A DNA stretch of 64,000 bases from Mycoplasma sp. CAG:956 (GCA_000433475.1 HF993083.1:10919-74918); one strand, 5' to 3'. Counted from the stretch's first letter, positions 2,891 to 41,374 are shown. Translations and numbers: made by a program. The notes: generated from the letters alone by a model not told the origin.

Positions 2891-2938
2891 GAAAAAAGAT
2901 ACAATGTTGATATAACTTATTAGTAAGGAAGTTTAATT

Positions 2939-4174
2939 ATGTGGCAAGCAATTTATTATATATTTTTTACTTTAACACTGTTTTATGGACTTTATTATTC
3001 TTTAACAGGACTATATGGTTTTTTAAAACCAAAGAAATTTAAGATAGTACCTTTTGAAGCAGAGAAGAAGTTTGCTATTGTTATAGCGGCTCGTAATGAA
3101 GAAGCTGTTGTTGGTAATTTAGTAAAATCAGTTCTAGATTCTAATTATCCTAGGGATTTATTTGAAGTTTATGTGGCTGTTAATAATACTACTGATAATA
3201 CAGCAAAAGTTGCTAAAGAAGCTGGTGCTATTGTTATTGATGTTAAAGAAAAAGTTAAATCAAAAGGTGAAGTTTTGCGATATGTTTTTAAAAAGTTAAG
3301 AAATCGTAAAGATATTGATGCTTATATTATTTTTGATGCAGATAATATTATTCATCCTGATTTTTTAGCACGTATGAATGATACTTTATGTTGTGGTTAT
3401 CGTGTTGCTCAAGGTTTTAGAGATAGCAAAAATATTAGTGATAACTGGATAAGTGGTTCTTATTCGTTATATTATTACATGCAAAATTTCTTTTTTAGTA
3501 AAGCTCGTATGACAATGAATCAAAATGCTTCCATTAACGGAACTGGTTTCATGGTTAAAAAAGAATTGATTGATGAAATGGGCTTTCCTACCCAAACTTT
3601 AACAGAAGATATTGAGTTTACTGCTTTGTGTGCATTGAGAGATGAAAGAATTGCTTTTGTTGAAAATGCTGTTACTTATGATGAACAACCAGTTGAATTT
3701 AAAGCTTCTTGGAAACAGAGAAAAAGATGGTCTGTTGGTTGTTTACAGTGTTTAAAACTTTATTGGAAGGATTTGCTTGGACACTTCTTTAAAACAGGAA
3801 GTCAGCCTTCTTTTGATATGTTTATGAATTTTGTTGCACCAGTAGTTCAAGTAATTTGTCTTGTTGAATTTGTTGCTTTAATTTTCTTTAGAATATTTAA
3901 TATTCGTCTTTACGATATATTCTCATCTCTATTCTCAAGTGGGGCTGTATTTATGATATTAACTTATGTTAGTGGTGTTGTTGTTAGTATCTTCATTTTG
4001 AAATATAATAAAAGAAAGGCTAAAAATCTTTTGAGTGCGATTGCTTTATTTGCGGTTTTCATTTTAACTTGGATACCAATTAATGTAGTATGTCTATTTA
4101 CTAAAGATATGAAATGGGAAGAAATTAAGCATAATCGTGGTATTGCCTCAAATGAGATGAAGTTTAATAAATAA
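2939..4174 (+). CDS. Membrane glycosyltransferase family 2, processive type
   Basis: N-terminal TM, IFDADN (DxD), TEDIEFT, QRKRW motif, C-terminal TM bundle. Confidence 0.75.
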   Translation: MWQAIYYIFFTLTLFYGLYYSLTGLYGFLKPKKFKIVPFEAEKKFAIVIAARNEEAVVGNLVKSVLDSNYPRDLFEVYVAVNNTTDNTAKVAKEAGAIVIDVKEKVKSKGEVLRYVFKKLRNRKDIDAYIIFDADNIIHPDFLARMNDTLCCGYRVAQGFRDSKNISDNWISGSYSLYYYMQNFFFSKARMTMNQNASINGTGFMVKKELIDEMGFPTQTLTEDIEFTALCALRDERIAFVENAVTYDEQPVEFKASWKQRKRWSVGCLQCLKLYWKDLLGHFFKTGSQPSFDMFMNFVAPVVQVICLVEFVALIFFRIFNIRLYDIFSSLFSSGAVFMILTYVSGVVVSIFILKYNKRKAKNLLSAIALFAVFILTWIPINVVCLFTKDMKWEEIKHNRGIASNEMKFNK

Positions 4175-4398
4175 TGTTAGTTAATGTTAATAAAAAATTA
4201 ATGCTTGATGATTATGAGATAGGTGTTTTGAAAAAATATAATATTGATATTAGTAATTGTAATAATTTAAGAGAAGTTACTTTATTAGTCGAACATTTTA
4301 TGGATAATTATGAACTTGATAGTGAAGAATTAGATGAATTAGATTATATTTTAGAAAGATTACAAGAAAGAAATTACTATCAAAATACAAATAAATAA
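4174..4398 (+). CDS. Small acidic hypothetical protein, start overlaps GT2 stop by 1 nt (taATG)
   Basis: 74-codon ORF translationally coupled to the GT2 gene; no recognisable motif. Confidence 0.4.
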   Translation: MLVNVNKKLMLDDYEIGVLKKYNIDISNCNNLREVTLLVEHFMDNYELDSEELDELDYILERLQERNYYQNTNK

Positions 4399-4601
4399 CT
4401 TAGTAGTACTTAGTGTAAATTAAAATAGATAATAATTTTCTTGATGAAAACTATAGGAACATAGGACAAAAAAAGTAAGAAATAATACCTTTTAGAGGTG
4501 TTATTTTTTTTAATATATGATAGTATATTAATTGCACAAGTAAATACTTAATTTTTAAAATTAAAAATGATATACTAAAGATAGTAAAGGGTGGTGATAT
4601 T

Positions 4602-7484
4602 ATGAAGTATAGTCCTTTAGGAATAAAGTCTGAATATACTTTGTTAACAAGTTTAATTAAAATAAGTGATCTAATTAACTTTGCTATGCAAAATAATATT
4701 ACTACCATTGGTCTTTTAGATGATAATTTAAATGGGGTAATGGAGTTTTATGATACCTGTTTGTTAAATAATATAAAGCCTGTAATTGGTTTAAAAGTGA
4801 GTATCAATGATAATATTTATTATCTTTATGCTAAGAATTATCAAGGCTATTTAGAGTTAGTTAAGATAAATAATAAGATAGTTTTAGAAGAAAGCGTATC
4901 TCTTAGTGATTTAAGAAGTTCTGATATTTATGTAGTTATTCCCTATGAATTTAAAGGAAACTATGAAGAGTTAAAAAACATTAAAAATATTAATGATATA
5001 TATATTGCTTATACTAATTTAGAGGAAAAAAAGAACTTGAGTTTGGTTACTTCCAATATACTATTTATTAAAGAAATAAGATGTTTTAATTCTGGTGATA
5101 CAGTTTATCTAGAATATTTAAAAAAAATTGGTGATAATGATTTTGAAACGTTTAATACAGCTTATGAAAATGACAATATAAATAATGATGATATAGAAAG
5201 ACTAAATAAATTTATTAGTACTATTGATATTAAAATGGATAAATCGAAACGATATATTCCTGTATTTAATAAAGATACTAATAGTAAAACTTATCTTTAT
5301 AATTTAGCTTTTTTAGGACTTAAAAAGAGATTTAATAATAAAGTTAGTGATAATTATATAAAGAGGTTAAATTATGAATTAGATGTCATTGATAAGATGG
5401 GATTTAATGATTACTTTTTGATTGTTTATGATTATGTTAAATATGCGAAGAAAAATGATATTTTAGTAGGACCAGGTCGTGGGTCAGCAGCAGGAGCTTT
5501 AGTAAGTTATTGTTTAGGAATAACTAATATTGACCCATTAAAATATAATTTGCTTTTTGAGCGTTTCTTAAATAAAGATAGAGTAACAATGCCTGATATT
5601 GATATTGACTTCGAAGATATAAGACGTGAAGATATGATAAGCTATGTTAGAGGAAAATATGGTTTATATAATGTTGCACCAATTACAACTTATGGCACTT
5701 TGCAGGCTAGACAAGTTATTAGAGATGTTAGTAAGTATATAATTGTTGATGATAAATTAATTGATACTTTTGTTAGTAATATTAATTCTAAATTGAGTTT
5801 AAAAGAAAATTTACAAAATCCAGTAATTAATAAAATGTTAAAAGAAAATGGTGTTCTACAAAGAATTTATAAGGTTGCTATGAAATTAGAAGGATTAAAA
5901 CGTCATATGTCAGTACACGCCGCTGGGGTTGTTATTTCTTCTGTTTCTTTAAAAGATGTTATGCCTGTTGTTAAGACTACAAGTGGAATTAATACGGGAC
6001 TAACTATGAATTATTTGGAAGAATTAGGATTCTTAAAAATGGATTTTTTAGCTTTATCTAATTTAACATTTATTCATAATATTTTAAGAAATTTACCAAG
6101 TAATTTTAATCTTTATAATATTCCATTAGATGATAAAGAAACATTTGACTTATTCTGTGAAGTTAACACAGATGGTATATTTCAGTTTGAATCTACGGGA
6201 ATGAAAGAATTCTTAAGAAAATTACAACCTAAGAACTTTAACGATTTATATGCAGCAGTAGCCTTATTTAGACCAGGACCAATGGATAATATTAATATTT
6301 TTATTGAAAGAAAAAATGGTGCTGATGTAACCTATATAGTTCCTGAGTTAGAACCAATTTTAAAAGAAACTTATGGTATTATTGTTTATCAAGAACAAAT
6401 TATGCAAATCTTAGTAACTATGGCAGGTTTTAGTTTTGCACAGGCTGATAATATAAGACGTGCTATGAGTAAAAAGAAAAAAGAAGTAATTGAAAAGGAA
6501 AGAATAAACTTTATTACTTCTGCTGTTAAAAAAGGTTATAATGAGACAAAGGCAGTTGAAGTCTACAATTTAATATTAAAATTTGCTAATTATGGCTTTA
6601 ATAAGGCTCACTCTGTAAGTTACGCTTTAATTGGTTATCAAATGGCTTATTTAAAAGTTCATTATAAAGAAGTATTTTTAGCTAATTTACTTAATATGAC
6701 TATAACTAATAGTAAGAAAACTGAGGATTATTTAAATATAGCTAAAAAAGATAATATAACTATTTTAGTACCTAATATTAATAAGAGTAAAGATGTTTAC
6801 TTGAGTAAGAATAATTATCTGTTGTTACCTTTAAGCATAATTAAAAATATTGGTAGTAATACGGTTAATTTAATTTTACAAGATAGAGAAGAAAATGGTT
6901 TATACATAGATTATTTTGATTTAGTTAGAAGATTTTATAAATTAGGAATTAAGAAAAATGCCATTGAAAGTTTAATTTATGCTAAAGCCCTAGATACTTT
7001 TAAGATAAATCATAAAACAATGATAAATATGTTAGATGAAGTGTTAAGATATGCTGAAGTTTGTGATAATTTAGATGTTTCTTTAGTAGAAAAGCCTATC
7101 TTGAAAATAGAAGATGAGTTTGATGATAAAACTTTAATGAATCAGGAATTAAATGTTTATGGATTTTATGTAAGTAATCACCCTGCTAGTAAATATAAGG
7201 CTAAGGATATAATAAAAATAAAAAATATAAAGGCTTACTTAGGTAAGAATGTTAAAATGGTTATATTGGTTAATGACATTAGGAAAATAAAAACGAAAAA
7301 AAATGAAGATATGGCTTTTATTAATGGAACTGATGAAACAGGTAGTATGGATTTTGTTGTTTTTCCCAAAAAAATTAATTACTTAGAAAATTTGAGTGTT
7401 GGCAGTTTAGTAGTAGTAATGGGAACGGTAGCTAGAAGAATTGATAAATATCAAATAAATATAAATGTAGTAAGGAGTATCTAA
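4602..7484 (+). CDS. dnaE: DNA polymerase III alpha subunit, DnaE type (short, 960 aa)
   Basis: GPGRGSAAGALVSYCLGIT, PDIDIDF, FRPGPM, YGFNKAHS motifs and C-terminal OB fold; RBS aaagggtgg before ATG. Confidence 0.9.
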   Translation: MKYSPLGIKSEYTLLTSLIKISDLINFAMQNNITTIGLLDDNLNGVMEFYDTCLLNNIKPVIGLKVSINDNIYYLYAKNYQGYLELVKINNKIVLEESVSLSDLRSSDIYVVIPYEFKGNYEELKNIKNINDIYIAYTNLEEKKNLSLVTSNILFIKEIRCFNSGDTVYLEYLKKIGDNDFETFNTAYENDNINNDDIERLNKFISTIDIKMDKSKRYIPVFNKDTNSKTYLYNLAFLGLKKRFNNKVSDNYIKRLNYELDVIDKMGFNDYFLIVYDYVKYAKKNDILVGPGRGSAAGALVSYCLGITNIDPLKYNLLFERFLNKDRVTMPDIDIDFEDIRREDMISYVRGKYGLYNVAPITTYGTLQARQVIRDVSKYIIVDDKLIDTFVSNINSKLSLKENLQNPVINKMLKENGVLQRIYKVAMKLEGLKRHMSVHAAGVVISSVSLKDVMPVVKTTSGINTGLTMNYLEELGFLKMDFLALSNLTFIHNILRNLPSNFNLYNIPLDDKETFDLFCEVNTDGIFQFESTGMKEFLRKLQPKNFNDLYAAVALFRPGPMDNINIFIERKNGADVTYIVPELEPILKETYGIIVYQEQIMQILVTMAGFSFAQADNIRRAMSKKKKEVIEKERINFITSAVKKGYNETKAVEVYNLILKFANYGFNKAHSVSYALIGYQMAYLKVHYKEVFLANLLNMTITNSKKTEDYLNIAKKDNITILVPNINKSKDVYLSKNNYLLLPLSIIKNIGSNTVNLILQDREENGLYIDYFDLVRRFYKLGIKKNAIESLIYAKALDTFKINHKTMINMLDEVLRYAEVCDNLDVSLVEKPILKIEDEFDDKTLMNQELNVYGFYVSNHPASKYKAKDIIKIKNIKAYLGKNVKMVILVNDIRKIKTKKNEDMAFINGTDETGSMDFVVFPKKINYLENLSVGSLVVVMGTVARRIDKYQININVVRSI

Positions 7485-7485
7485 G

Positions 7486-10400
7486 ATGAGTAGTGAAGAA
7501 TTGTTTTTTCAAAGCCTAGGAATAAATGATTTAAAAGTTTATCAAAACTATAAGATAAAAGAAGTTTTATTAGATGAGAAAAAACGAGAATTTAATGTAA
7601 CTATGATAGTTCCAAATGATTTAATTTTTCAAGATGTTGATAAATTATATCAAGCTTGTAAAAGAGGAATTAATGGAAATATTAAAGTTAATTTAACTGT
7701 TGAAAGTAATATTACAGATAAAGATAAAATAATTAGTATATTTAGATATGTTTTAAATAATTATATAAGTACGAAACCTTCTTTAAGTGGGATAATAGAT
7801 AATAATATTACTATGGATGATGATATTATTATTGTCGAAGTTAATACAAAAATAGAAGAAAAATCTGTATTAGAAGGAGTAAAAAGTTTATTAAATAGAC
7901 TTAGTTTTTATGGAATTAAAGATGTTAATATTACTACAACTGTAAATGTAGAAAAGCAAGAAGAAATTAAAAAGTTAATGGAATCTAGTCATGAAGAACA
8001 AGTAGTAAAAGAAGTATCACCGGTATTTTTAGGTAAACATATTGATGGTGATATTATGGAAATTAATGATATAATGGGTGATACTAAAAATGTTATTGTA
8101 GAAGCTTTTATCTTTGGGGAGATTACTACTTTAGAAAAAGAAACTATTAATATTATTACTCTTAAAGTTAGTGATAAGACAAATAGTATTTTAGCTAAAA
8201 TTTTTAAAAAAGATCATGATGAATTTAGTGAAGTTATGGATAATTTAAAGGCTGGTAATTGGTATCGTATCCATGGTAATGTTGAGTTTGATACTTTTGC
8301 GAAAGAATTAGTTTTAAAAGTCCGTAATATGGAAAAAATAGCTTCTAAAGAAAATAAGGTTAAAGATGATGCCGAAGTTAAGAGAGTGGAATTGCATACG
8401 CATACAATGATGAGTGCCATGGATGCAGTTATTCCGGCTGAAGCATTAGTAAAATATGCTTATAATTTGGGACACAGAGCTATTGCAGTAACCGATCACA
8501 ACTGTGTTCAATCATTTCCAGAGCTATATCATACAGTTGAAAATATTAATAAAGGTAAAGATCCAAAAGACCATTTTAAAGTTTTATATGGTACAGAAAT
8601 TAATGTGGTTAATGATGATATTGATGTAGTATTTAATAATCGTGAGTATAATTTATTGGACCAAACTTATGTTGTCTTTGATACAGAAACAACTGGTTTT
8701 TATGCTGGTAGCGATCAAATGATTGAAATTGGGGCAGTTAAGATTAAGAATAATGAAATTTTAGACCGCTTTGATGAGTTAATTGATCCACATCGTCCCC
8801 TTCCTCAAAAGATTACAGATTTAACTTATATTACTGATGATATGTTAAGGGGCAAAGAAAACGAAGATGTTGTTACGAAGAAATTCTTAGATTGGGTAGG
8901 CGATTTGCCTTTAGTTGCTCATAATGCTAAGTTCGATATTTCATTTATGAAAGCAGCTTGTAATAAGTATAACTTAGGAGAGTTTAATGCGACAGTTTTA
9001 GATACTATGAGTATGGCTCGCATGTTACATCCAGATTGGCCAAATCATAAACTTAGTACTTTGACTAAAAAATTAAATATTCCTTGGGATGAAGATAAAC
9101 ACCACAGAGCTGATTATGATGCTGAAGGTACTGCTTATGCTTTTTATAAATTTTGTAAGGATTTTGACCAACAAAATATTTCTACTACTACTAAGTTAGT
9201 AAAAAGTATTGATACTGATAGTTTAGTTAAGTTTGCTTATCCATTTCATGCTACTATTATTGCTAAAGACCGTGGTGGTTTAAAGAATTTATTTAAAATT
9301 ATTAGTATGGCTAATACTAAATATCTTTATAAGAATGAACAGCCAAAGATTCCAAGACAAGAGATTTCTAAATTAAGAGAAGGTCTTATTATTGGTTCAG
9401 CTTGCATTAACAATGAAATATTTGAAAAAGCTGCTGGTATGGAAGATGAAGAACTTGTTAATATGATGAGTTTCTATGACTATATCGAGGTTCAACCTTT
9501 AAGTGTATTCTCACATTTAATAGGCATTGATCGTAAATTTAATAATGAAATTGAGGCTCAAAATTACTTAAAGAGAATTATTCGTGTTGCGAAAGAAGCT
9601 GGAAAACCAGTAGTAGCAACTGGTGATGTTCATAATTTAACAAAGGAAGATTTAATTTATCGTGAAATAATTGTTAATACAAAGTTCAATGGTAAGTTGC
9701 ATCCATTAAATCGTAAGGGCATGGCTGTTCCAAATATGTATTTAAAAACTACTAATGAAATGTTAGAAGAGTTTAACTTTTTAGATGAGGCAACAGCTTA
9801 TGAAATAGTTGTTACTAATCCAAATAGAATTGCTGATATGGTTAGTGAAATTGAAGTAATCATTGCAACACCAAAACCATTTGCACCAAAGATTCCTAAT
9901 TCGATTGAAACAATGACTGAGCTTGTTTATACTAAGGCAAGAAATTGGTATGGTGATGTTTTGCCTTATCATATTGAAGATAGACTTGCTAAGGAACTTT
10001 ATGGTGATTCTTTAAAAGAAGCAATAACTTATTATGTTAATAAAGATGAGTCGATTACCGATAAAGATAAAGAAATATTTGCTATTTTACATAAAACGAT
10101 TGTTGGTGGGTATGATTCAGTAAAAGATTATATTAAAGGTTATCTAAAAGATACTTTAGAAGAAGTACCTAATGATGAAGAGCTAGATAAAGAAGCTAAA
10201 AAGAAGTTAGGTGGTATCATCGGTGCTGGTTATGATGTTATTTACTTGATTGCTCAAAAGTTAGTTAAACACTCTAATGATGAAGGATTCTTAGTTGGGT
10301 CCCGTGGTTCCGTTGGTTCTTCATTTGTTGCTTGTATGATGGGGATAACTGAGGTTAACTCTTTGGCAGCTCATTATCGTTGTAGTAAATGCAAACTTAG

Positions 10401-15212: not shown

Positions 15213-16081
15213 ATGGAAAATATTGTATATCATGGATTAGTACTTCTGATTTAAAGGTTTTAGAGCCACATAAATCTACACATGGAAATTTTGTTTATGC
15301 AACAAACTATAAAGAAATAGCAACTATTTTTGCTAAAAAATATGGTCATGATTTAACTTATGGTATTGGTAGAAGTAATAAAGATGAACCTTGGATAATA
15401 ACAGAAAGAGTACCAGGGGCTTTTGATAGAATGTTTAATAATCCGTTTTCTTTGTATACTTTGCCAATAGATACTTTTAAAGATATAAAAACTGGTTTTG
15501 CTAAAGTTGTTTCTGATACTAGTGTGAAAGTTTTAAAAAATGAACCTTTCTTAAATAATGGTATTAAAGTAATATTAGAAACTTATCCAGAATTAGAAAA
15601 CTATGTTAAACATTCTTTAGAAATAAATAATTTTAATGAAGAACAATTAAAAGATTTATATGCTAAAAAAGATGAGTTTTTAAGTAAGAAAGATTTTGAA
15701 CTATATTTAACTGGAAGTGTTTTTAATAGTTTAGATAAACCAGCTATTATCGATTTTGGAGCAGGGCATTCTATTTATAGGACACCTCTTGCTTTTTATG
15801 AGTTTCAAAGGTTAATGAAAAAATTTAAAAATATTGTTTTTCTGGTACCTAGTGAAGATAAGAGTGAGGCTTTAAGGATAATAAATGAAAGAGTAGCAAA
15901 ACGTGGTCAAAATAATGGTGTTGATTATACCAAAATTAACAGTGGTCATTTAGAAAGTCCTTGTAATGATATAATAGCTACTATGAAAATATGTACTAAA
16001 GGAATGAACTCATCTCGAGTTGCTAGTGAGATATTAAGAAGAATTCAAGAAAGAGAAGAAGATATTGATATAAAAAAGTAA
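15213..16081 (+). pseudogene. Hypothetical gene with apparent frameshift near 15233 (ATG 15213 frame stops at 15252..15254; long frame has no start until 15431)
   Basis: MENIVYHG... from ATG 15213 runs into a stop. The adjacent frame is open from 15212 and reads ISTSDLKVLEPHKSTHGNFVYAT..., continuous with the track ORF 15431..16081. Confidence 0.5.
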
Positions 16082-16250
16082 GATATTTATATAATCATAG
16101 ATATGTCTAATTGTTTGTAAAGTAAGATAAAGTAAAGAAAAAATAATTTTCTTTTTAAATTAAGTATGCTAATATTAAGGGGAATAGAGATAATAGATTA
16201 ACAAAATTACTATTCAAAGTTTAATAACTATCATAAGAGGAGGAAAAATT

Positions 16251-17450
16251 ATGGGATTTATTAAAGCATTTGCAGGAGCAATAAGTGGTACTTTTGCAGA
16301 TCAATGGAAAGATTTTTATGTTCCAAGTAGTAATATAACAGAAACATCTGCTGTTTATCCTGCTGTATTAAAAAGTACAAATAATGGTAGAGGAGAAAAC
16401 TATAAAGGTAATGCTAATATCATTACTAATGGTAGTAAAATTGTTGTACCAGAAAATACTGCTTTGATTACAATGCAAGATGGGGCAATTACAGGCTGTA
16501 TTACTGAAGCTGGTGGTTATGAATTTAAGTCAGATGATGTAAATTCAAAATCAATGTTTGCAGGAGATGGAATATTTGGTCAAACAATTAAATCAACATG
16601 GGAAAAAGTAAAATTTGGTGGCATTCCGGGAAGTCAACAATTAGCATTCTATGTTAATTTAAAAGAAATTCCTAATAATAAATTTGGTACTCAATCTGAA
16701 ATTTATTGGGATGATGCTTTTTTAGGAACACAAGTTGGTGCTATTACAAGAGGTACTTATACTTTAAAAATAGTTGATCCACTATTATTTGTTAAAAATT
16801 TTGTCCCAGCTAAATATTTAGTTGTTGATGCACCAGTATTTGATTTTGGTGATATGGATAATGATGCTTGTGAACAATTATTTAATGAAGTAGTTGGTAC
16901 TTTATCATCAGCATTTTCTAAGTATACAAATGATCCTGAAAAAGGTAATAGAATTACTAAAATTCAAGCTGATCAAATTGGTTTTGCTAAGGCAATGAGT
17001 GCTGCTGTAGAAGAAGCATATCAATGGAAGGAATCTAGAGGTTTAGAAATTGTTAAAACAGCTATTCTTGCTATTGAATATGATGAAGATACTAAGAGAT
17101 TAATGAGTGATGTTAAGAAAGCTGATGCCCTAAGTGGTGCTAGAGGAAACTCATTTATGCAACAAGCTGCTGCTCGTGGTTTAGAGAGTGCTGGTGCAAA
17201 TGGTGGTGGTGCTGGTATGGCTTTCATGGGTGTAGGTGCTAATGCTGCTGGTAGTATGGTAAGTAACTTTGCTCAAGAAAACACTCCTTCATCTTATAAT
17301 CCTAGTTTTGCAAACAAAGAAAGCAATAGTGGAAATGCTACAAGTGAGGATCCTGCTACTAAACTTCTTAAAATGAAAGAACTTTTAGATGCTGGTGCTA
17401 TTACAGAGGAAGACTATGAAAAAATTAAAAAACAATTATTAGGACTATAA
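16251..17450 (+). CDS. SPFH-domain protein of the virion-core-protein-like (YdjI-like) group with C-terminal SHOCT motif
   Basis: MGFIKAFAGAISGTFADQWKDFY N-terminus typical of this group, Gly/Ala-rich linker, C-terminal LLKMKELLDAGAITEEDYEKIKKQLLG (SHOCT). Confidence 0.7.
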   Translation: MGFIKAFAGAISGTFADQWKDFYVPSSNITETSAVYPAVLKSTNNGRGENYKGNANIITNGSKIVVPENTALITMQDGAITGCITEAGGYEFKSDDVNSKSMFAGDGIFGQTIKSTWEKVKFGGIPGSQQLAFYVNLKEIPNNKFGTQSEIYWDDAFLGTQVGAITRGTYTLKIVDPLLFVKNFVPAKYLVVDAPVFDFGDMDNDACEQLFNEVVGTLSSAFSKYTNDPEKGNRITKIQADQIGFAKAMSAAVEEAYQWKESRGLEIVKTAILAIEYDEDTKRLMSDVKKADALSGARGNSFMQQAAARGLESAGANGGGAGMAFMGVGANAAGSMVSNFAQENTPSSYNPSFANKESNSGNATSEDPATKLLKMKELLDAGAITEEDYEKIKKQLLGL

Positions 17451-26365: not shown

Positions 26366-26387
26366 AGTACTTAGTACTCTTTTTTTT
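26364..26387 (+). terminator. Rho-independent terminator of the lipid/glycosyl cluster
   Basis: agagtac tta gtactct hairpin followed by T7. Confidence 0.7.
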
Positions 26388-26432
26388 GTATGAATATATA
26401 TTTATTGGGAATAATATATTCTTTAGATAATA

Positions 26433-26725
26433 TTTTCATAGAGTTAAAAACTCTATGAATACGTATTTTCGGATATTATTTTTACCTTATACCTAAATAA
26501 TATCATATCTTTAAGCCTTTTTAAAGAATATATTTAAAGATAAATTATCTTTTTATAGTCAAATTTCTAGTCAAACAATATCTTTTAAAACCTAGGTGAA
26601 TACTGGCTTTGCTAAAAATTATTCTAGTCAGAAAACAAATTTCATTCTAGTCGAAATTATAGTCAAATAGACTTCAAACTCAGTATTCACCTAATATTTT
26701 CATAGAGTTTTTAACTCTATGAAAA
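26433..26725. repeat. Inverted-repeat-bounded upstream module, copy 1
   Basis: 26433..26459 and 26699..26725 are exact reverse complements (27/27). Nested 13-bp IR at 26593..26605 / 26681..26693. RGTCAR hexamer pairs start at 26557/26569 and 26649/26661. Confidence 0.85.
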
Positions 26726-26809
26726 CAGAATTAATGGATATGTATATTATTTTTAATTTTGGTAGGCTATAAGTGTTGCATATTATAGCTAGAAATGGTT
26801 TATATTAAT

Positions 26810-28570
26810 ATGAAAAAATTTAATAAAGATAAGTATTTAAAGAAATTAAAATTTAATAAGTATAAGAGATACTTATATATAGGAATACCTTGTATATTAG
26901 TATTATTAATAGGAATATACTTTGCTTATTCAAAGTTTAGTGTTTTTAAAGAGGAAGAAGTAGTAAGAACTACGGTAGAAAGTTTTATCTCTGATGATGC
27001 TGTTATTGGAGCTTATATAGATGGAGAATACTCTAAAACTATTCCTGGTAAGAATGATGGTTATATAGTAGATAAAATAGTCTGTGATAATGATGCAACT
27101 GCTTCTTGGAATAATGATTCTTGGGGAATAGTATTAACTAATCTAACTAAGAGAACTAAATGTAATGTGTATTTTAAGAAAGGCATAAAAATTGGTAATT
27201 TGACTGCTTTTGTTGATGAGTTAGGTAAATGTCCAACTATCAATAGTGATGGTACAGTTAATGTAACTAGTGCTGAAGCAACGGATGGTTATGTTTGTAG
27301 TGCAAAAGACGCATATGGAACAAGTTATTATTATCGTGGAAATGTTACAAACAACTATGTAAAGTTTGGTAAATGGTCTGATGATTTACCGACATCGTTT
27401 GTTGATGGTGATGGTAATATATATGATTCTTATGATGATTGTACAAGTTTTGGTGGTGGTGATTGTACTGAGTTAGCTCTTGCTGGAAAAAGTATGTACT
27501 GGCGAATTGTTCGTATTAATGGCGATGGTACCGTTAGAGTAATCTATGATGGAACTTCAGCTCATACCAATGGTGAAAGTAGTATGGATAGACAAATTGG
27601 AACATCAGCATTCAATTCATATTGGAAGAAGGATAATGTTCAAGAAGCTACTGAATCATATGTTTATGATAATGCTGGTGTTGGCTATATGTATGGTAAT
27701 CGTGATGCTATGGTAGAAACCACATCATCTTTTATATCAACTAGTTTTCAAAATAATTATACATATTATATTGCTAAAGAGTATACATATGATGCCACAA
27801 CCGATAGATTTACTTTAAAAGATCCGATTGCCGTATTAGGTAGTGCTATGACCTCAGACTATGTAGGCTATTATACTTTTGGAAATTCAAATGTTAGTTA
27901 TTCTAATAGCCGATTGATGAAAATATTTGGAGTAACAGCTGGTCGTATAGATGCCGATGTAGAATATGGTTATATCACGTATGGGACTTCAAGTAAAGAA
28001 GTAGCTCAGACTAATATAAATGACTCAACTATAAAAGCTTACTTAGATAATTGGTATAAAACTAATATTTTCGGTACGAAAAATGAACAATATTTAGCGG
28101 ATAATATTTTTTGCAATGATCGCAGTTTTGCATCTAGTAATTCAGGAACTGGAGCTGGAGTAAGTAAAACATATTATAATTGGTATAATTGGCATACATC
28201 TAAGTCTAATTTAAAATGCCCACAAAAAAATGATGCCTTTACGGTAAGCGATACTACCAATGGTAATGGAGCACTAACATATCCAGTCGGACTTTTAAGT
28301 ACGGATGAAATAGTACTAGCCGGTGGATTGGATAAAGAAAATAGTGATTATTACTTATACTTTGGGAACTGGTGGTGGACTTCCTCACCATACGAATTTG
28401 CCAGCAGCAGTGCTGACATGCGTTATGTGGCTCAGAGTGGTCTTGCGAGTGCCAAAGGCTTTGGTGCTGCTGATTCCAGCCGTGGTGTTCGTCCAGTTAT
28501 CAATCTGAAGGCTGAAGTGCTGGCACAAGGCTCCGGGACAGCTTCGGATCCTTATCGCATTTCTTCGTAG
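26810..28570 (+). CDS. Large membrane-anchored/secreted protein, family paralog A (intact)
   Basis: MKKFNKDKYLKK... basic N-terminus plus TM. Family blocks GKCPTINSDGTVNVT, YGTSYYYRGNVTNNYVKFG, YWRIVRINGDGTVRVIYDGTSAH, NIFCNDR, CPQKNDAFTVSD, YPVGLLSTDE, GVRPVINLK. Confidence 0.8.
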   Translation: MKKFNKDKYLKKLKFNKYKRYLYIGIPCILVLLIGIYFAYSKFSVFKEEEVVRTTVESFISDDAVIGAYIDGEYSKTIPGKNDGYIVDKIVCDNDATASWNNDSWGIVLTNLTKRTKCNVYFKKGIKIGNLTAFVDELGKCPTINSDGTVNVTSAEATDGYVCSAKDAYGTSYYYRGNVTNNYVKFGKWSDDLPTSFVDGDGNIYDSYDDCTSFGGGDCTELALAGKSMYWRIVRINGDGTVRVIYDGTSAHTNGESSMDRQIGTSAFNSYWKKDNVQEATESYVYDNAGVGYMYGNRDAMVETTSSFISTSFQNNYTYYIAKEYTYDATTDRFTLKDPIAVLGSAMTSDYVGYYTFGNSNVSYSNSRLMKIFGVTAGRIDADVEYGYITYGTSSKEVAQTNINDSTIKAYLDNWYKTNIFGTKNEQYLADNIFCNDRSFASSNSGTGAGVSKTYYNWYNWHTSKSNLKCPQKNDAFTVSDTTNGNGALTYPVGLLSTDEIVLAGGLDKENSDYYLYFGNWWWTSSPYEFASSSADMRYVAQSGLASAKGFGAADSSRGVRPVINLKAEVLAQGSGTASDPYRISS

Positions 28571-28694
28571 AAGAAATTATAAATTGTAAAATAGAAAGTC
28601 ATAATGAGAAGTTATGATTTTTTAAAGCAATTAAGATTAAGGGGTTAAAAGTATCTTAATATATAGTATTATTTAGGTATAAATTAAAATATGT

Positions 28695-29363
28695 TAATAA
28701 TAGTTATGGGACTGTTAATGTGACGAAAGTAGAATCTACATATGGGTATGTTTGTAATGTAACTGATGTTTATGAGACTAGTTATTACTTTAGAGGAAAT
28801 ATTACCAATAACTATGTTAAGTTTGGAGGATTTTATTGGCATATTTTAAGAATAAATGGGGATGGCTCAATTAGGCTTGTCTATGATGGAACTAGTGCTC
28901 ATGATAATAATGAATCAAGTAGTGATAGAATTATTGGGAATAGTAAATACAATAGTAGTGCGAATGATAATACTTATGTTGGTTATATGTATGGTAGCAC
29001 TGGTGCTTCTTCATACGATGCAACGCATGCTAATACTAATGATTCTACTATTAAGATTTATATTGATAATACAACTAATCTAAGTAAATATTTTACTTAT
29101 TATCAGCCGATGAGGTCGTTTTAGCTGGGAATTGGACTGATGCTAATACTAATTATTTATATACGGGTAGTCAGTATTGGACTATTTCTGCTGGTAGTTA
29201 TACAACGATGACTTCAGGAAATAGATTAATTGATGCTGATGGAGGTTCTCCTAATTTTAGTTTAGTTGATGTTGATATTGGCGTTAAACCTATTATTAAT
29301 CTTAAAGCTAATTCTTTAACTAAGGTTCTAGGAACTAAGGATAGTCTATATACAGTGGAATAA
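28695..29363 (+). pseudogene. Promoterless, 5'-truncated and internally deleted copy of the family (paralog B)
   Basis: Starts mid-domain at ..GTVNVTKVESTYGYVC.. with no signal/TM. Frame breaks near 29100. A second frame (29106..29363) encodes the family C-terminus ADEVVLAGNW...GVKPIINLKANSL. Confidence 0.75.
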
Positions 29364-29410
29364 AAAAACTACAAGTGTTTAAGTTAATTACTTATTCTTG
29401 TAGTTTTTTT
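29363..29410. terminator. Bidirectional hairpin between convergent genes
   Basis: aaaaaactacaag / cttgtagtttttt 13-bp stem with A/T runs on both sides; overlaps the 3' end of the radical SAM gene. Confidence 0.6.
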
Positions 29411-30333
29411 CCTTGATAAGTATCTCTTTTTACCATTTCTTTATCTATATCATTTAGAACACAAAATTTCTTTAAGACCCATTCGGGAGTAATTAAATCT
29501 TCTTTTTTAGGATCTCCTGTTAGTCTATGAATAACCATTTCTGGACGAAGATATTCTAACTGGGAGACTACTATATCAATATATTCTTCTTTAGTTAAGA
29601 TATGAAATGGCTTTTCTTGATACATAGAAGCTAACTTAGTGTTTTTAATAACATGTAACATATGGATTTTAATGCCAGCTACATTTAAAGAATTTACATA
29701 TTTGGCTGTATTAATCATCATATCTTTGGTTTCGCCAGGTAGACCATTAATAATATGGACAACTACCTTAATATTATTAGCTACTAACTTTTTAACACAC
29801 TCGTCAAAGTTTTTTAAATCATGACCACGATGGATTAATTTTAAAGTTTCATCATACATAGATTGTAATCCTAATTCAATAGTAAGATTAGTTCTTTTAT
29901 TTAAATCGATTAGATATTCTAGGCATTTATCAGAAATACAATCACTACGAGTAGCAATAGAAAGGCCAATAACGTTAGGAATTTTTAAAATAGGTTCAAA
30001 CTTTTCTTTTAGTATTTCAACTGGAGCATAAGTATTGGTATTAGCTTGGAAGTAACCGATGTAATAGGCATCTTGCCATTTATGTTCCATAACATTTTTA
30101 ACCATTTCAAATTGCGTTATTAAATCATCTTCGACTAAGCCGGCAAAATCACCACTACCTAATGGTGAACAAAATATGCAACCATAGCCATCTTTTTTAT
30201 TGGGACAACTGAAACCGGCATTTAAAGAAACTTTAAAGACTTTTTTTCCATATTTAGTTTTATATTCATAATTTAGGGTATGATATCTTTTATTATCGAG
30301 AGTATATTTAAACGTGTTTTCCATGTAAATCAC
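29392..30333 (-). CDS. Radical SAM protein, TIGR01212 (YhcC-like) family
   Basis: NAGFSCPNKKDGYGCIFCS cluster motif and overall family pattern. Confidence 0.85.
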   Translation of the reverse strand: MIYMENTFKYTLDNKRYHTLNYEYKTKYGKKVFKVSLNAGFSCPNKKDGYGCIFCSPLGSGDFAGLVEDDLITQFEMVKNVMEHKWQDAYYIGYFQANTNTYAPVEILKEKFEPILKIPNVIGLSIATRSDCISDKCLEYLIDLNKRTNLTIELGLQSMYDETLKLIHRGHDLKNFDECVKKLVANNIKVVVHIINGLPGETKDMMINTAKYVNSLNVAGIKIHMLHVIKNTKLASMYQEKPFHILTKEEYIDIVVSQLEYLRPEMVIHRLTGDPKKEDLITPEWVLKKFCVLNDIDKEMVKRDTYQGKKLQE

Positions 30334-30438
30334 CTAGAAGTAGTTTAACATAAAAACTAAATTTTAAAAATAAAAAAAATAAGTTGGAAATTTTTAATTT
30401 TAGTCCAACTTACTTTTTGTTTGATGGTATAGATAACA

Positions 30439-31796
30439 TTAATCTACTGATAAAACATAAGGCTTTTCTTTAAGTCCTAATCCAGCTATTAAAGAATCTG
30501 CTTTTATATTAATAACTGGTTTTACAGACGCAGAATTAGAATTAATTCCAAAGTTTGGTGTTGAACCATCCTCACTTATTGATCTATTACCTGTTATTCC
30601 TATAGTACAACTTCCTGCGGAAGCAGTCCAATATTTATTACCTGTATATAGATAATACCCGTTATTAGCACTATTCCAGCCACCGGCTAAAGTAATATCA
30701 TCACCAGACAATAGTCCTATTGGATAAGTTAAAGCTCCATTACCCTTACTAGTATCACTTACTGTAAAAGCATCATTCTGTTGAGGACAAGTAAAAGATA
30801 CTGTCATATTACCATAACTACTTCCATCCCAAGGTCCTCTGGCCAACGATAATAAGTTCCTTTGGTTCCATATCCACTAGTACCATGAGATCCATCTGTA
30901 TAAGTACTAATCTTACGGTCATTGCAAAAGATATTATCCGCTAGATAAGTGGAATACTGACTTAAATTAGTTGTATACCAATTATCTACAAACTTCTTAA
31001 TAGTTGAATCATTGGTATTCGCATGGGTCTCTGCATAAGTTGATGCACCAGTTTTACCATACATATATCCTACATAAGCATTATCATTCGCATTACTATT
31101 GTATTTACTATCCCCAATAATTCTATCACTACTAGCTTCATTATTATTATGAGCACTAGTACCATCATAGACAAGTCTAATTGTCCCATCCCCATTTATT
31201 CTTAAAATACGCCAATAAAATCCTCCAAACTTAACATAGTTATTGGTAACATTTCCTCTAAAGTAATAACTAGTTCCATAATCATCTGGTGCACTACAAA
31301 CATACCCATCTGTGGATTCTACTTTTGTTACATTAACAGTTCCATCACTATTAACACTTGGACACTTTCCTGTCTTATCAACTGATGCTATAATTCTATC
31401 AGTAATTTTACTGGTCTTAAAATAAACATTACACTTAGTTCTTTTCGTTATATGAGAAACATTTAAATCCCAAGTAAGATCATTCCATACTCCTACAGCA
31501 TTATTATCACAGACTACTTTATCAGCAACATATATAGAATTATCTTTAGGAAACTCTCCTACTAATTCATCATCTAAATAAGCCCCAATAATTACATCTC
31601 CATGGATAAAACTTCCTACCGTAGTTTTTACTACTTCCTTTTCTTTAGAGACAAAAAATAAGGAATGAGCAAAATAAATTCCTAGAATACCACTACAAAT
31701 ACAAGATAAGATCATATAGAAGTATTTGGAATAATTTTGCCAAAATTTTTTGAATTTTATTTTTTTCAAATATCTATTGCTATTAAATTTTTTCAT
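30439..31796 (-). pseudogene. Family paralog C, full length but split by a 1-nt frameshift near 30846
   Basis: Track ORFs 30804..31796 and 30439..30846 together reproduce the family order. The junction reads ..GTYYRW then, one frame over, ARGPWDGSSYGNMTVSFTCPQQNDAFTVSD. Confidence 0.75.
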
Positions 31797-32102
31797 ATAT
31801 TACATATCCTCACAAAAATTATTAAGAAGAAGTTATTGATCCTAATTAAATTTTTAATGTTATTTGAATTTAAATATTTAAAGAGATAAAGATAAAAGAT
31901 ATAAGGTATTGTAACTTATTCTTAATTTACACTATAACTATACTATAGAAATTTTTTTAAATCAAGATTAAAAATAGTTTTATAAAATATGAATGATTAA
32001 TTAATTTTAATACTAAATAAGGTTTAAGATGCTATTATCTTTTTTATTGAAAAAGACTTTTTAGTTTGTTATACTTAAAATTAGAAAGAATAGGGATGTC
32101 AA

Positions 32103-38635: not shown

Positions 38636-40003
38636 ATGGAAGAAAGATTAGAAATTGTATTAAATGAAATATTTTTAAAATATGGTTTTTTATTTGATAA
38701 GAAAAGTGAATTAGAAGATTTAGTTAGTGATATTACTGATAGATATTTAGAATCAGTTAGACTTGATGTTTCTATTTTTAATACTTATTTAATGGAAATA
38801 GAAAGTAGAGTTAGAAAATATTTAGCTTTGAAAATAAAGGAAAATCCTTTTAAGGTTTTAAATAGTTATATAAATAAAAATCTAAGTAATGCTAAAAATA
38901 ATATAGAAGCTTTAGATAGCATTAGTTATTTGTGTGATATTAGTGGTTATAAAATAAGTAATGTTATGATTAAAGAATTACTTAATAATAATAAAGTTTT
39001 AAATAAATTAGTTAGTAGTGCTGTAAAGGATAATATGGTTTATTTAAAAAATAATAATTTAGGTAAAAAAGTATCTAATGAAGTAGCGAAAGAATTTATT
39101 TATACTTATTGTGATTTAGAAAATATTGATGTTAATGAAATAAATCCAACTAGTAAATATCCTTATTTTGGTTATGATCTTCCACCTTTTAAAACGGTTG
39201 AAGAAGAATTAGAAGTTGTAAATATGGCGAAGATGGGCGATAAGAGTGCTAAAGAAGAGCTTATTTTAAGAAATATTAAACTTATAAATAATGTAGCTAT
39301 TAAATATCTTAATACAATATTTAATATTGATGATTTAACTCAAGAAGGAATAATTGGGCTTTTAACTGCTATTGAAAAATATGATAGTAGTAAGAAAATA
39401 AAATTTAGTACTTATGCTAATTATTGGATTAAAGCTAATATTTTAGGATATATAAAAACAAAGGGTAATGCTATTAAAATTGGTAGTAGTGATACTACTT
39501 TGTATACTAAATATTTAAAGTTTCAAGAAAGTTTTTCAAATAAATATGGAAGAGTTCCTACTTTAGCTGAAGCTGCTTTAGAATTAGATGTTGGCATAGA
39601 ACACTTAGAAATGGTTATTAATTCAAGAAAAAATAATCTTAGTCTAGATGAGTATGTTTATGATGAAGATAAAGAAGCTACTATGGCTGATTTTATACCT
39701 GATGAATCAATTGATATTGAGGCAGATGCCGAAGATTTAGAGTTAAAAGAAAATATAAATACTATTTTAAATAATATTGGTTTAAGTGATAAAGAGAAGA
39801 TAGTAGTTTATTTACGTTTCGGCTTTGATGGTAGTGGGACTATATGTCCAAGACAAAAAATTGCTGATTATTTAGGATTATCACAACAAAGAATTGGACA
39901 AATAGAAGAAAGTGCTAAAAAGAGAATAATTAATAGTAAAATTTTTAAAGATTTAATAGCCGATGATTCATTAACAAGAACGTTAGATGTTTTAAAAAAA
40001 TAA
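38636..40003 (+). CDS. Sigma-70 family factor with ~190-aa unknown N-terminal domain (paralog 1)
   Basis: Region 2 DDLTQEGIIGLLTAIEKYD..KFSTYANYWIK, region 3, region 4 IADYLGLSQQRIGQIEESAKKRI. Confidence 0.8.
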   Translation: MEERLEIVLNEIFLKYGFLFDKKSELEDLVSDITDRYLESVRLDVSIFNTYLMEIESRVRKYLALKIKENPFKVLNSYINKNLSNAKNNIEALDSISYLCDISGYKISNVMIKELLNNNKVLNKLVSSAVKDNMVYLKNNNLGKKVSNEVAKEFIYTYCDLENIDVNEINPTSKYPYFGYDLPPFKTVEEELEVVNMAKMGDKSAKEELILRNIKLINNVAIKYLNTIFNIDDLTQEGIIGLLTAIEKYDSSKKIKFSTYANYWIKANILGYIKTKGNAIKIGSSDTTLYTKYLKFQESFSNKYGRVPTLAEAALELDVGIEHLEMVINSRKNNLSLDEYVYDEDKEATMADFIPDESIDIEADAEDLELKENINTILNNIGLSDKEKIVVYLRFGFDGSGTICPRQKIADYLGLSQQRIGQIEESAKKRIINSKIFKDLIADDSLTRTLDVLKK

Positions 40004-40036
40004 GTATAAGATTAATCATGATTGGAAGTTGATAAT

Positions 40037-41374
40037 ATGGAGGAAAAAGTCTTAGATAGTGTTTATAACAAATATGCTTTTCTATTTCAAAATAAGAGTG
40101 AATATTTAACTAAAGTAAGACAAGCAATAGAAAAATATGAAAATTGGGCTTTAAGTAGTTCAAATATAGAGTTATTCTTATATGAATTAGAAGTAATTAT
40201 GCATAAATATTTAAAAGAAAGATTAAATGAAAATCCTTTTGATGTTTTAGATAAGTATATTGAGATAAATTTAAAAAATTGTACGAACTATTTAGGTGCT
40301 TTAGAAGATTTAGCTAAATTTTGTGATACCAATTATTTAATATTAAGTACTGATTTAGTAAAGAAATTATTACTTGATAATGTTATTTTAAATAATATAG
40401 TTGGTAATGTTTGCAAGAAATATTTAAATAGTATAAAAATTGGTCGTTTTAATAATGAAACTACAAATAAACTAGTTAGAGAATTCGTTTATATCTATTG
40501 TGACTTAGAAAAGATTGAAATAGCTTATGAAAACAGTAGTTATTCATATTTAAGATATAGTTTGCCTCCTTTTGATACGAAAGAACAAGAGATTGCGGCA
40601 ATTAAAAAAGCTAAAGACGGTGATAATGCTGCAAAAGAAGAGATTATTTTAAGAAGTGTTAGGTTAGTTTATAGTATTGCTAAAAGGTACTGTTCTGAGG
40701 GAATTAGTATGGAAGATTTAATTCAAGAAGGTATAGAAGGAATATTATATGCTATTAATGGTTATAATTTTGATTATGATATTAAATTTAATTCTTATGC
40801 TTATGAATGGATTAGACAAAAGATATCAAGATATGTTATATCAAAAGAACATTATTTTGGGGGAGCATTTACTAATGCTAAGTTATATGGTGAATATGAA
40901 AAAGTGTATGAAAAATTATGCTCTAAATTAGATAGAGAACCAACTATAAAAGAAGTAGCAGAGGTTTTAAAAGTACCTAGTTCTAAATTATATATGGTTA
41001 TAATTAGTAATACCTCTAATGTTAGTTTAGATGAACCAATAGATAGTGATACTCCTTCTAGTATTAGTGAATTTTTAGCTGATGATAGTAGTGATTTTGT
41101 TTTGGAACATGAAGATAAAGAATATCTTGAAAATATAGATAACTTATTAGAGAGTATGGGTTTAACTAAAAGAGAAAAAGAAGTTATTAAGTTAAGAAAT
41201 GGATTAGATGATTTAGGAATTACTAGAACTAAGGTCGAAGTAGCAGAGATGCTAGGACTTACTCATCAAAGAGTTGCCCAATTAGAAAAAGTTGGGTTAG
41301 AAAAAATAAGAAGTTATATGAATAGTGAAGAAAAGAATAATAAGAAAAGATTAAAACTTGAGAAAAAAAATTAA
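40037..41374 (+). CDS. Sigma-70 family factor with the same N-terminal domain (paralog 2)
   Basis: EDLIQEGIEGILYAINGYN..KFNSYAYEWIRQ, VAEMLGLTHQRVAQLEKVGLEKI. N-terminus aligns with paralog 1 (NENPF.VL..YI, EF.Y.YCDLE). Confidence 0.8.
   Translation: MEEKVLDSVYNKYAFLFQNKSEYLTKVRQAIEKYENWALSSSNIELFLYELEVIMHKYLKERLNENPFDVLDKYIEINLKNCTNYLGALEDLAKFCDTNYLILSTDLVKKLLLDNVILNNIVGNVCKKYLNSIKIGRFNNETTNKLVREFVYIYCDLEKIEIAYENSSYSYLRYSLPPFDTKEQEIAAIKKAKDGDNAAKEEIILRSVRLVYSIAKRYCSEGISMEDLIQEGIEGILYAINGYNFDYDIKFNSYAYEWIRQKISRYVISKEHYFGGAFTNAKLYGEYEKVYEKLCSKLDREPTIKEVAEVLKVPSSKLYMVIISNTSNVSLDEPIDSDTPSSISEFLADDSSDFVLEHEDKEYLENIDNLLESMGLTKREKEVIKLRNGLDDLGITRTKVEVAEMLGLTHQRVAQLEKVGLEKIRSYMNSEEKNNKKRLKLEKKN

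Follow-up and report, generated by a model that had tools for sequence, protein, structure and literature searches.

An invertible cassette upstream of a variable, DUF6273-like and probably surface-exposed protein family in an uncultured gut bacterium

Results

Family members and cassettes in the window

This study concerns a family of membrane-anchored, DUF6273-like proteins, and the short DNA cassettes that lie in front of some of their genes, in a 64,000-nucleotide stretch of Mycoplasma sp. CAG:956 (GCA_000433475.1 HF993083.1:10919-74918); we refer to this whole stretch as the window. A preliminary description of the same DNA recognized a cluster of four paralogs, A to D, with A and D intact. 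This stands: all four are found in the places where they had been reported, and a tblastn search revealed no further family copy in the window. The genes and their cassettes are as follows.

26433..26725, no strand assigned: invertible cassette, 293 bp, just upstream of A
26497..26525, minus strand: promoter-like site inside the cassette (TTTAAA/TTAAAA, a spacer of 16-17 nt, TG-n-TATTAT)
26810..28570, plus strand: gene A, intact, 586 aa; N-terminal membrane helix, beta domain, and DUF6273-like domain with two insertions
28698..29363, plus strand: B, a pseudogene remnant of a g3-type paralog (see below), headless and internally deleted
30439..31796, minus strand: C, a 452-aa paralog, inactivated in the window's strain by a 1-nt deletion at 30842
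59494..59790, no strand assigned: homologous cassette upstream of D, with sites at 59505-59525 and 59759-59779 (spacers TACAT/ATGTA)
59869..61629, plus strand: gene D, intact, 586 aa, with a different N-terminal module

The open reading frame (ORF) of A extends from 26795 to 28570; the ATG at 26810 is the start used by gene calls in sister contigs. The setting is low-GC chromosomal DNA (about 26-30% GC), with housekeeping genes for DNA polymerase III, threonyl- and tryptophanyl-tRNA synthetases (ThrRS, TrpRS), a GyrB-type topoisomerase subunit and a tRNA.

The segment upstream of gene A inverts

The cassette that precedes A is bounded by perfect 27-nt inverted repeats (26433-26459 and 26699-26725), which enclose an interior of 239 nt. 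Each of these arms contains a lox-like site, CATAGAGT-N5-ACTCTATG; the window has four occurrences of the motif, where 0.01 would be expected by chance. Same-species contigs, which we reached via the identical acyltransferase protein that adjoins A, allow the orientation of the cassette to be compared between strains. Over 16.8 kb, one of them, L091, shows 100% identity to the window apart from segment 26433-26725, which is reversed. The orientation seen in the window is shared by six further contigs (L097, L090, L092, L095, L098 and L114; n = 7 with the window itself), and the reverse orientation is also represented seven times (L091, L093, L094, L083, L084, L087 and L110). Both orientations are found on the same allele of the A slot, and several contigs start or stop at the cassette. 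These are the properties of an invertible switch: a segment between inverted repeats that is present in both orientations in natural DNA of a single species. We conclude that segment 26433-26725 inverts.

A promoter-like site on one strand of the cassette

When 22 distinct cassettes are aligned, conserved blocks emerge, among them the promoter-like site listed above: its extended -10 element (TGnTATnnT) falls in the same column and on the same strand in 22/22, and the other strand of these 22 cassettes has no conserved promoter-like site. In addition, two relics of the cassette that have no arms, one upstream of B and one upstream of C, both face their genes:

28645..28689, plus strand: armless relic of the promoter end of the cassette, facing B; 45 nt, 76% complementary to 26480-26524
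31915..31943, minus strand: armless relic of the promoter part of the cassette, facing C; 29 nt, 90% identical to the promoter part of a cassette in L071

We infer from this pattern of conservation that the cassette carries a promoter on one strand only. Since the site faces away from A in the window and towards A in L091, we take the window orientation to be the putative OFF state of A.

Two other features of the cassette interiors (26557-26665 and, for D, 59610-59725) are conserved as well. TAGTCAAA forms two pairs of direct repeats (TAGTCAAA-N4-TAGTCAAA), and close to the arm on the side of the gene lies a CCAGTATTCACCTAG box that pairs with an internal inverted copy. Both the TAGTCAAA repeats and the CCAGTATTCACCTAG box may be accessory protein-binding sites.

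Related cassettes precede other genes for membrane-anchored proteins

The arrangement upstream of A recurs widely. Across the first loci that we fetched, from many RF39-like metagenome-assembled genomes (MAGs), there are 38 paired sites, 252-275 nt apart, with more in loci fetched later; for 48/48 listed cassettes, the gene directly downstream, 14-100 nt away, encodes a membrane-anchored protein. Within each pair of sites the two spacers are reverse complements, and they differ from cassette to cassette. Most cassettes in the assemblies examined are in the putative OFF orientation. A scan of metagenomes for the arm sequence itself returned 16 loci, mostly from other species. As for the cassette upstream of D, its right site is imperfect (two mismatches), and no inversion was seen in four assemblies, which have one orientation throughout.

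Two neighbours of such cassettes are of separate interest. In L082, a contig from a related species whose flanking proteins are 77-91% identical to those of the window, the gene g4 (15306-16661) encodes an N-terminal stretch of 128 aa that is 87% identical to that of A, followed by a different C-terminal domain; g4 also has a cassette of its own (L082:14926-15211). This combination of an A-like anchor, a private cassette and another domain indicates that the anchor module and the switch move between different families of surface domains. In L005, an ORF of 586 aa (9400-7640, minus strand) whose N-terminus resembles that of type IV pilins (GFTIPELL) is situated to the left of cassette L005_9627, 125 nt from it and on the side away from the family gene.

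Inversion, rather than insertion in either orientation

An alternative account would dispense with programmed variation: the locus would be a birth-and-death cluster of paralogs, and the cassette a 264-bp insertion, resembling a miniature inverted-repeat transposable element, that has entered a palindromic hairpin in either orientation. Several observations lend themselves to this account. In L001/L096 (L096 is the same contig as L001), one arm is present as a single hairpin and the interior is gone, as at an empty site; the arms themselves are palindromic, and can also be read as direct repeats that resemble a target duplication; and in L099 an integrase-bearing element lies 30 nt away. Insertion does not, however, readily explain why opposite orientations are found in contigs that are 100% identical over 16.8 kb, why a cassette stands at a fixed distance before more than 30 paralogous genes, why spacers are specific to each cassette and always reverse complements within the pair, or why a conserved, strand-specific promoter-like site is common to all cassettes. 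Moreover, orthologous cassettes diverge in step with their genes: that of A is 91% identical between the window and the L082 orthologue, which fits vertical descent.

A further contig bears upon this question. In L116 (3200-3480, equivalent to window 26380-26850), one arm and the promoter end of the cassette are left, facing the gene, and the deletion junction falls in a 13-nt repeat, AATATATTCTTTA, one copy of which is at window 26413-26425 and the other, inverted, at 26522-26534. The two copies are in direct orientation only in the reversed state of the cassette, and a deletion between them in that state explains L116. From its sequence, L116 looks like a natural derivative that is apparently locked ON, and L001/L096 look like the opposite case. 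Taken together, we regard the insertion account as unlikely, and favour inversion.

The recombinase that would invert the cassettes is most likely of the tyrosine type and encoded elsewhere: in L009, which derives from the closest reference genome, a tyrosine recombinase gene (5904-6968; PF00589 and PF14659) lies 197 nt from a cassette. The L099 element mentioned above (same species, 1566-9446) contains a tyrosine integrase, a Rep3 replication protein and helix-turn-helix proteins; it is inserted right after the acyltransferase gene, at about window 26403, which is 30 nt before the position of the left arm.

B is a dead remnant and C an ordinary paralog

The preliminary description suggested that the cluster might be an archive for antigenic variation, in which A would be the expression site, and B and C silent donors for gene conversion in the style of MgPa/MgPar, pilE/pilS or vlsE. 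Clustered paralogs that include a headless partial copy do invite such a view; the histories of B and C argue against it.

The corresponding locus of L082 has more genes than that of the window: an A orthologue, g2 (the C orthologue), g3, g4, a HipA-like gene and a radical-SAM gene. Of these, g3 encodes an intact 451-aa protein whose C-terminal part is 84% identical to that of B, and B is therefore what is left of a g3-type paralog. The two are homologous from 28698 onwards, which is nt 447 of g3 (the first 446 nt are gone in B), with interruptions by deletions of 6, 235 and 3 nt in B. B had been reported to have neither start codon nor N-terminal module and to change frame near 29100, which is correct; the frame change is due to the 235-nt deletion, at about 29096. 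B also carries G174E and R196H, both at residues that are invariant in 112 family members, and it is limited to strains of the A-type haplotype: in strains with other alleles, an unrelated stretch of ~670 nt occupies that place. The ratio of non-synonymous to synonymous substitution rates for B (0.28 against its orthologue, 0.22 against C) says little about its recent decay. The relic that precedes B shares a short exact match with cassettes. One feature of B would suit an archive: its central part is slightly nearer to C (85.8% identical) than to its own orthologue (82.7%). B and C together form an inverted repeat (373-409 nt, 86-87% identity) that encloses a radical-SAM gene; the exact sequence of the window's radical-SAM protein was not found on record.

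C, for its part, is frameshifted by 1 nt, as had been noticed. We locate the lesion as the loss of a G at 30842: L001, about 99% identical to the window, has GGG where the window has GG, and the extra G restores a 452-aa ORF, which in the window is split into ORFs of 330 aa and 135 aa. Eight other same-species contigs cover C, and the gene is intact in six of them (L090, L092-L096); L091, identical to the window, has the frameshift, and L116 reaches only the last few bases of C. The frameshift is restricted to the window's strain. In other strains C is 96.5-99% conserved, with its own start codon and a promoter-like relic in front of it, and the intact C protein (P0221) represents a cluster of 368 database sequences.

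B is accordingly a dead, haplotype-specific remnant, and C is an ordinary paralog knocked out in the window's strain; neither is an archive. An archive would hold several lesion-free, promoterless cassettes. Here there is no cassette array: the sole partial copy is B, and it is damaged.

The C orthologue of L082 (g2; L082:11928-13290) has been inactivated in a separate event: in the YW(T)AS motif, the codon for the conserved Trp has changed from TGG to TGA. We considered genetic code 4 for this TGA and rejected it: long ORFs are open under code 11, and so the change is a nonsense mutation. The two knockouts suggest that the armless paralog C is lost repeatedly.

Alleles of the A slot are mosaic

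Among strains of the species that share about 98% identity with the window in the flanks, at least five divergent alleles occupy the A slot (all from same-species contigs):

586 aa, the A type
591 aa, 82% identical to A
456 aa and 500 aa, each 57-59% identical to A
a fifth form, 91% identical to the 500-aa allele

These alleles are mosaic: the 456-aa and 500-aa forms are identical for roughly their first 540 nt and divergent thereafter, and the 82%-identical form alternates between A-like and 500-like segments. The ~40-aa insertion that A contains after KFGKW, previously pointed out, is real, and is seen again in other alleles. A shorter exchange is apparent in C, where 19 clustered substitutions within 40 nt (nt 744-783) divide A-haplotype strains from the others, which keep the L082 state. 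Segmental exchange therefore occurs in this family.

Both the mosaic alleles and the 40-nt tract, which shows that short conversion-like events take place, are what an archive would also be expected to leave behind, and to this extent the variation that had been foreseen for the locus does exist. It is the donor role of B and C that falls away. A comparison of strains for A alleles with tracts derived from B or C had been proposed; a sliding-window best-match analysis of four A-slot alleles contained no tract that best matches either, and the sequences closest to the new C tract are other family members (89-91% identical), not B. With B decayed and C intact in most of the contigs that cover it, we judge it very unlikely that the locus consists of one expressed gene and its silent donors, and we prefer to view B and C as casualties of gene turnover.

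The haplotype of the window has a further peculiarity. Between 26945 and 29484 (most of A, B and the start of the radical-SAM gene), there is one difference from L001 in 2.5 kb, against ~1% in the flanks, and the adjoining 26695-26944 has 17 differences, mostly A to G. The pattern over 26695-29484 suggests that a tract was recombined, or a sweep took place, recently, and that the breakpoint lies at the 5' end of A.

A large family with a predicted DUF6273-like fold

The family is very large: more than 7,000 clusters at 90% identity, of at most 8,000 candidates scored, match A, and none of them is named. The genomes matched are MAGs whose labels read uncultured Bacilli, Tenericutes or Mollicutes, Mycoplasma sp. 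CAG:776, or Candidatus Pelethosoma, and many of them have 5-7 loci; the hosts belong to the RF39-like Bacilli of the gut, an uncultured group that NCBI places in Mycoplasmatota incertae sedis. The shared sequence blocks that had been listed earlier turn out to be invariant or near-invariant columns when 60 or 112 family members are aligned.

The preliminary description also detected a resemblance to DUF6273. At the level of sequence this holds weakly: the score of A against DUF6273 (PF19789) is 20.5 bits (E = 4.8e-4), short of the 23.5-bit cut-off; neither intact C (P0221) nor D matches at E <= 0.01, nor do the two window fragments of C at E <= 1. Among 60 close relatives, 18 have matches at E <= 0.01, the best at 2.4e-7, and many homologues carry a precomputed PF19789 match. 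An NCBIfam search returned noise only.

Structure prediction takes the resemblance further. AlphaFold2 applied to A with a shallow alignment gave an unusable model (predicted local distance difference test, pLDDT, 51), and for intact C, with 112 more diverse sequences, it gave a model with a pLDDT of 83 and a predicted template modelling (pTM) score of 0.74. This model comprises an N-terminal helix (6-47), a beta domain (68-128) and a large domain (140-452). Foldseek matches it to phage DUF6273 proteins (E = 1e-5 to 8e-4, probability 0.6 to 1.0); as modelled, the fold is shared with recognized DUF6273 proteins. DUF6273 has been described as a C-type-lectin-like domain that is diversified by diversity-generating retroelements (DGRs) in phage receptor-binding proteins (PMC10743442), and as the N-terminal domain of a gut (Thomasclavelia) IgA (immunoglobulin A) protease (PMC12402451). 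By analogy, the DUF6273-like domain is probably a ligand-binding surface module, and the proteins are probably surface-exposed; inspection of the sequence revealed no lipobox. The earlier picture of a multi-copy, variable, membrane-anchored and probably surface-located family related to DUF6273 is upheld.

Variation is unevenly distributed along the protein. Column entropy has its minimum at residues 171-300 and 341-370 and peaks in the C-terminal loops (391-425); insertions are concentrated after residues 191 and 247. DGR variable regions usually occupy just such a C-terminal position, and DUF6273 domains are DGR targets in gut phages (PMC10743442), which raises the idea that a DGR diversifies these loops, with the 3' part of B as its template repeat. 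Against this, neither Pfam scans of the window nor precomputed Pfam calls for the same genes in sister contigs gave a reverse transcriptase gene among the ORFs of 120 aa or more other than the family copies, the 3' part of B is only about 67% identical to that of C and is simply that of a g3 orthologue, and the clustered substitutions in C are not adenine-specific. We attach hardly any credence to a DGR at this locus.

Elsewhere in the window (38636-41374), two sigma-70-family paralogs of about 450 aa each, with long N-terminal extensions, are arranged in tandem.

Discussion

We consider it probable that the window captures part of a phase-variable, allele-rich family of lectin-like surface proteins, switched by inversion of promoter cassettes, in which B and C are casualties of gene turnover. 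Each protein would be anchored by a transmembrane helix at its N-terminus, followed by a small beta domain and then by a DUF6273-like domain with a conserved scaffold and hypervariable C-terminal loops. Variation would then operate at three levels. At the first, inversion of the ~290-bp cassette, 22-100 nt ahead of each gene, between its two inverted lox-like sites would turn the gene ON or OFF, A and D both being in the putative OFF orientation in the window, and C sitting behind a fixed, armless promoter relic. At the second level, alleles of the A slot would be exchanged between strains by recombination in the conserved flanks, and at the third, short conversion-like tracts would pass between paralogs.

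Several observations weigh against this interpretation. In DNA as AT-rich as this, a simple promoter scan gives no enrichment relative to shuffled sequence, and both the promoter and the ON/OFF assignment derive from sequence conservation only. D is intact and 99% conserved, yet its cassette is fixed in the putative OFF orientation and has an imperfect right site; the fixed orientation is awkward if it means OFF. The L001 locus, without a cassette, could also be taken for an empty insertion site. No recombinase gene was found in the window by Pfam scans of the set of ORFs used above in the search for a reverse transcriptase, or in precomputed Pfam calls for sister contigs. Finally, the lectin-like assignment finds no echo among experimental structures: a Foldseek search of the PDB with the C model gave nothing significant (the top match was the C-terminal domain of Lcl, E = 0.24), and A and the 60-member profile matched nothing among PDB sequences, even at E <= 10.

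A wider proposal, which we offer tentatively and would not yet expect to be borne out, is that these bacteria engage in genome-wide combinatorial display: dozens of DUF6273-type genes, each behind a conserved lox-like invertible promoter cassette with a spacer of its own, would be served by one or a few tyrosine recombinases, with most genes OFF at any time. Further layers would be superimposed, namely deletion derivatives that are locked ON or OFF, the knockout of always-ON paralogs that lack arms, of which C is an example, whole-allele exchange from strain to strain, and micro-conversion between paralogs. If true, this never-cultured lineage would possess multilayered surface variation directed against host immunity or phages.

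The gut of humans and animals commonly harbours RF39-like Bacilli, which are uncultured and whose cell surface is almost uncharted. The present locus offers a concrete, testable switch, with a site sequence, a cassette, a candidate recombinase and derivatives that are apparently locked. It also ties a large unnamed protein family to the DUF6273 lectin-like fold that gut phages use for receptor binding, and the hypervariable A locus could be of use for marking strains. Here, both the partial copy and the frameshifted one have proved to be decay products, a caution against over-reading such layouts as antigen archives.

Comparison with known systems

The closest known system is the mpl (P35) family of Mycoplasma penetrans, each gene of which has its own invertible promoter, according to the account of Horino et al. 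2003 contained in PMC10502178. In both, a lineage related to the Mollicutes has a large family of genes for surface proteins, a short invertible promoter-like cassette with inverted repeats stands before each gene, and genes may be switched individually. The proteins, however, are unrelated: those of M. penetrans are P35 lipoproteins, whereas ours are transmembrane-anchored, DUF6273-like and without a lipobox, and have no Pfam or NCBIfam match to P35-type lipoproteins. The cassette described here is ~290 bp with lox-like palindromic sites of 21-27 nt, and the host is an uncultured RF39-like gut bacterium. In the literature that we searched, nothing relevant was found on invertible elements in RF39 or Mollicutes MAGs, and this system is not described there.

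Gut invertons form the broader class. In Bacteroides capsule loci, C. difficile cwpV and flagellar switches, inverted repeats flank the promoter of genes for surface structures. As with these, both orientations of our cassette are present in metagenomic assemblies, and a trans-acting recombinase is plausible; the differences are a site sequence of its own, a conserved interior with repeated TAGTCAAA, and another family of target genes.

The DUF6273 domains of phages and of the IgA protease resemble the present family in weak profile hidden Markov model matches, significant Foldseek matches of the model to the phage proteins, and hypervariable loops at the C-terminal end of the domain. The family differs from them in its large insertions, its N-terminal membrane anchor, its chromosomal location and the absence of a DGR from the window.

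Finally, the gene-conversion archives include MgPa/MgPar of M. genitalium, pilE/pilS of Neisseria and vlsE of Borrelia. Our locus has clustered paralogs with a partial copy, mosaic alleles and short conversion-like tracts in common with them. In contrast to those archives, it contains one damaged remnant in place of an array, no cassette-derived tracts were found in its A gene, and C, the second copy that was supposed to be silent, is in most strains a normal gene.

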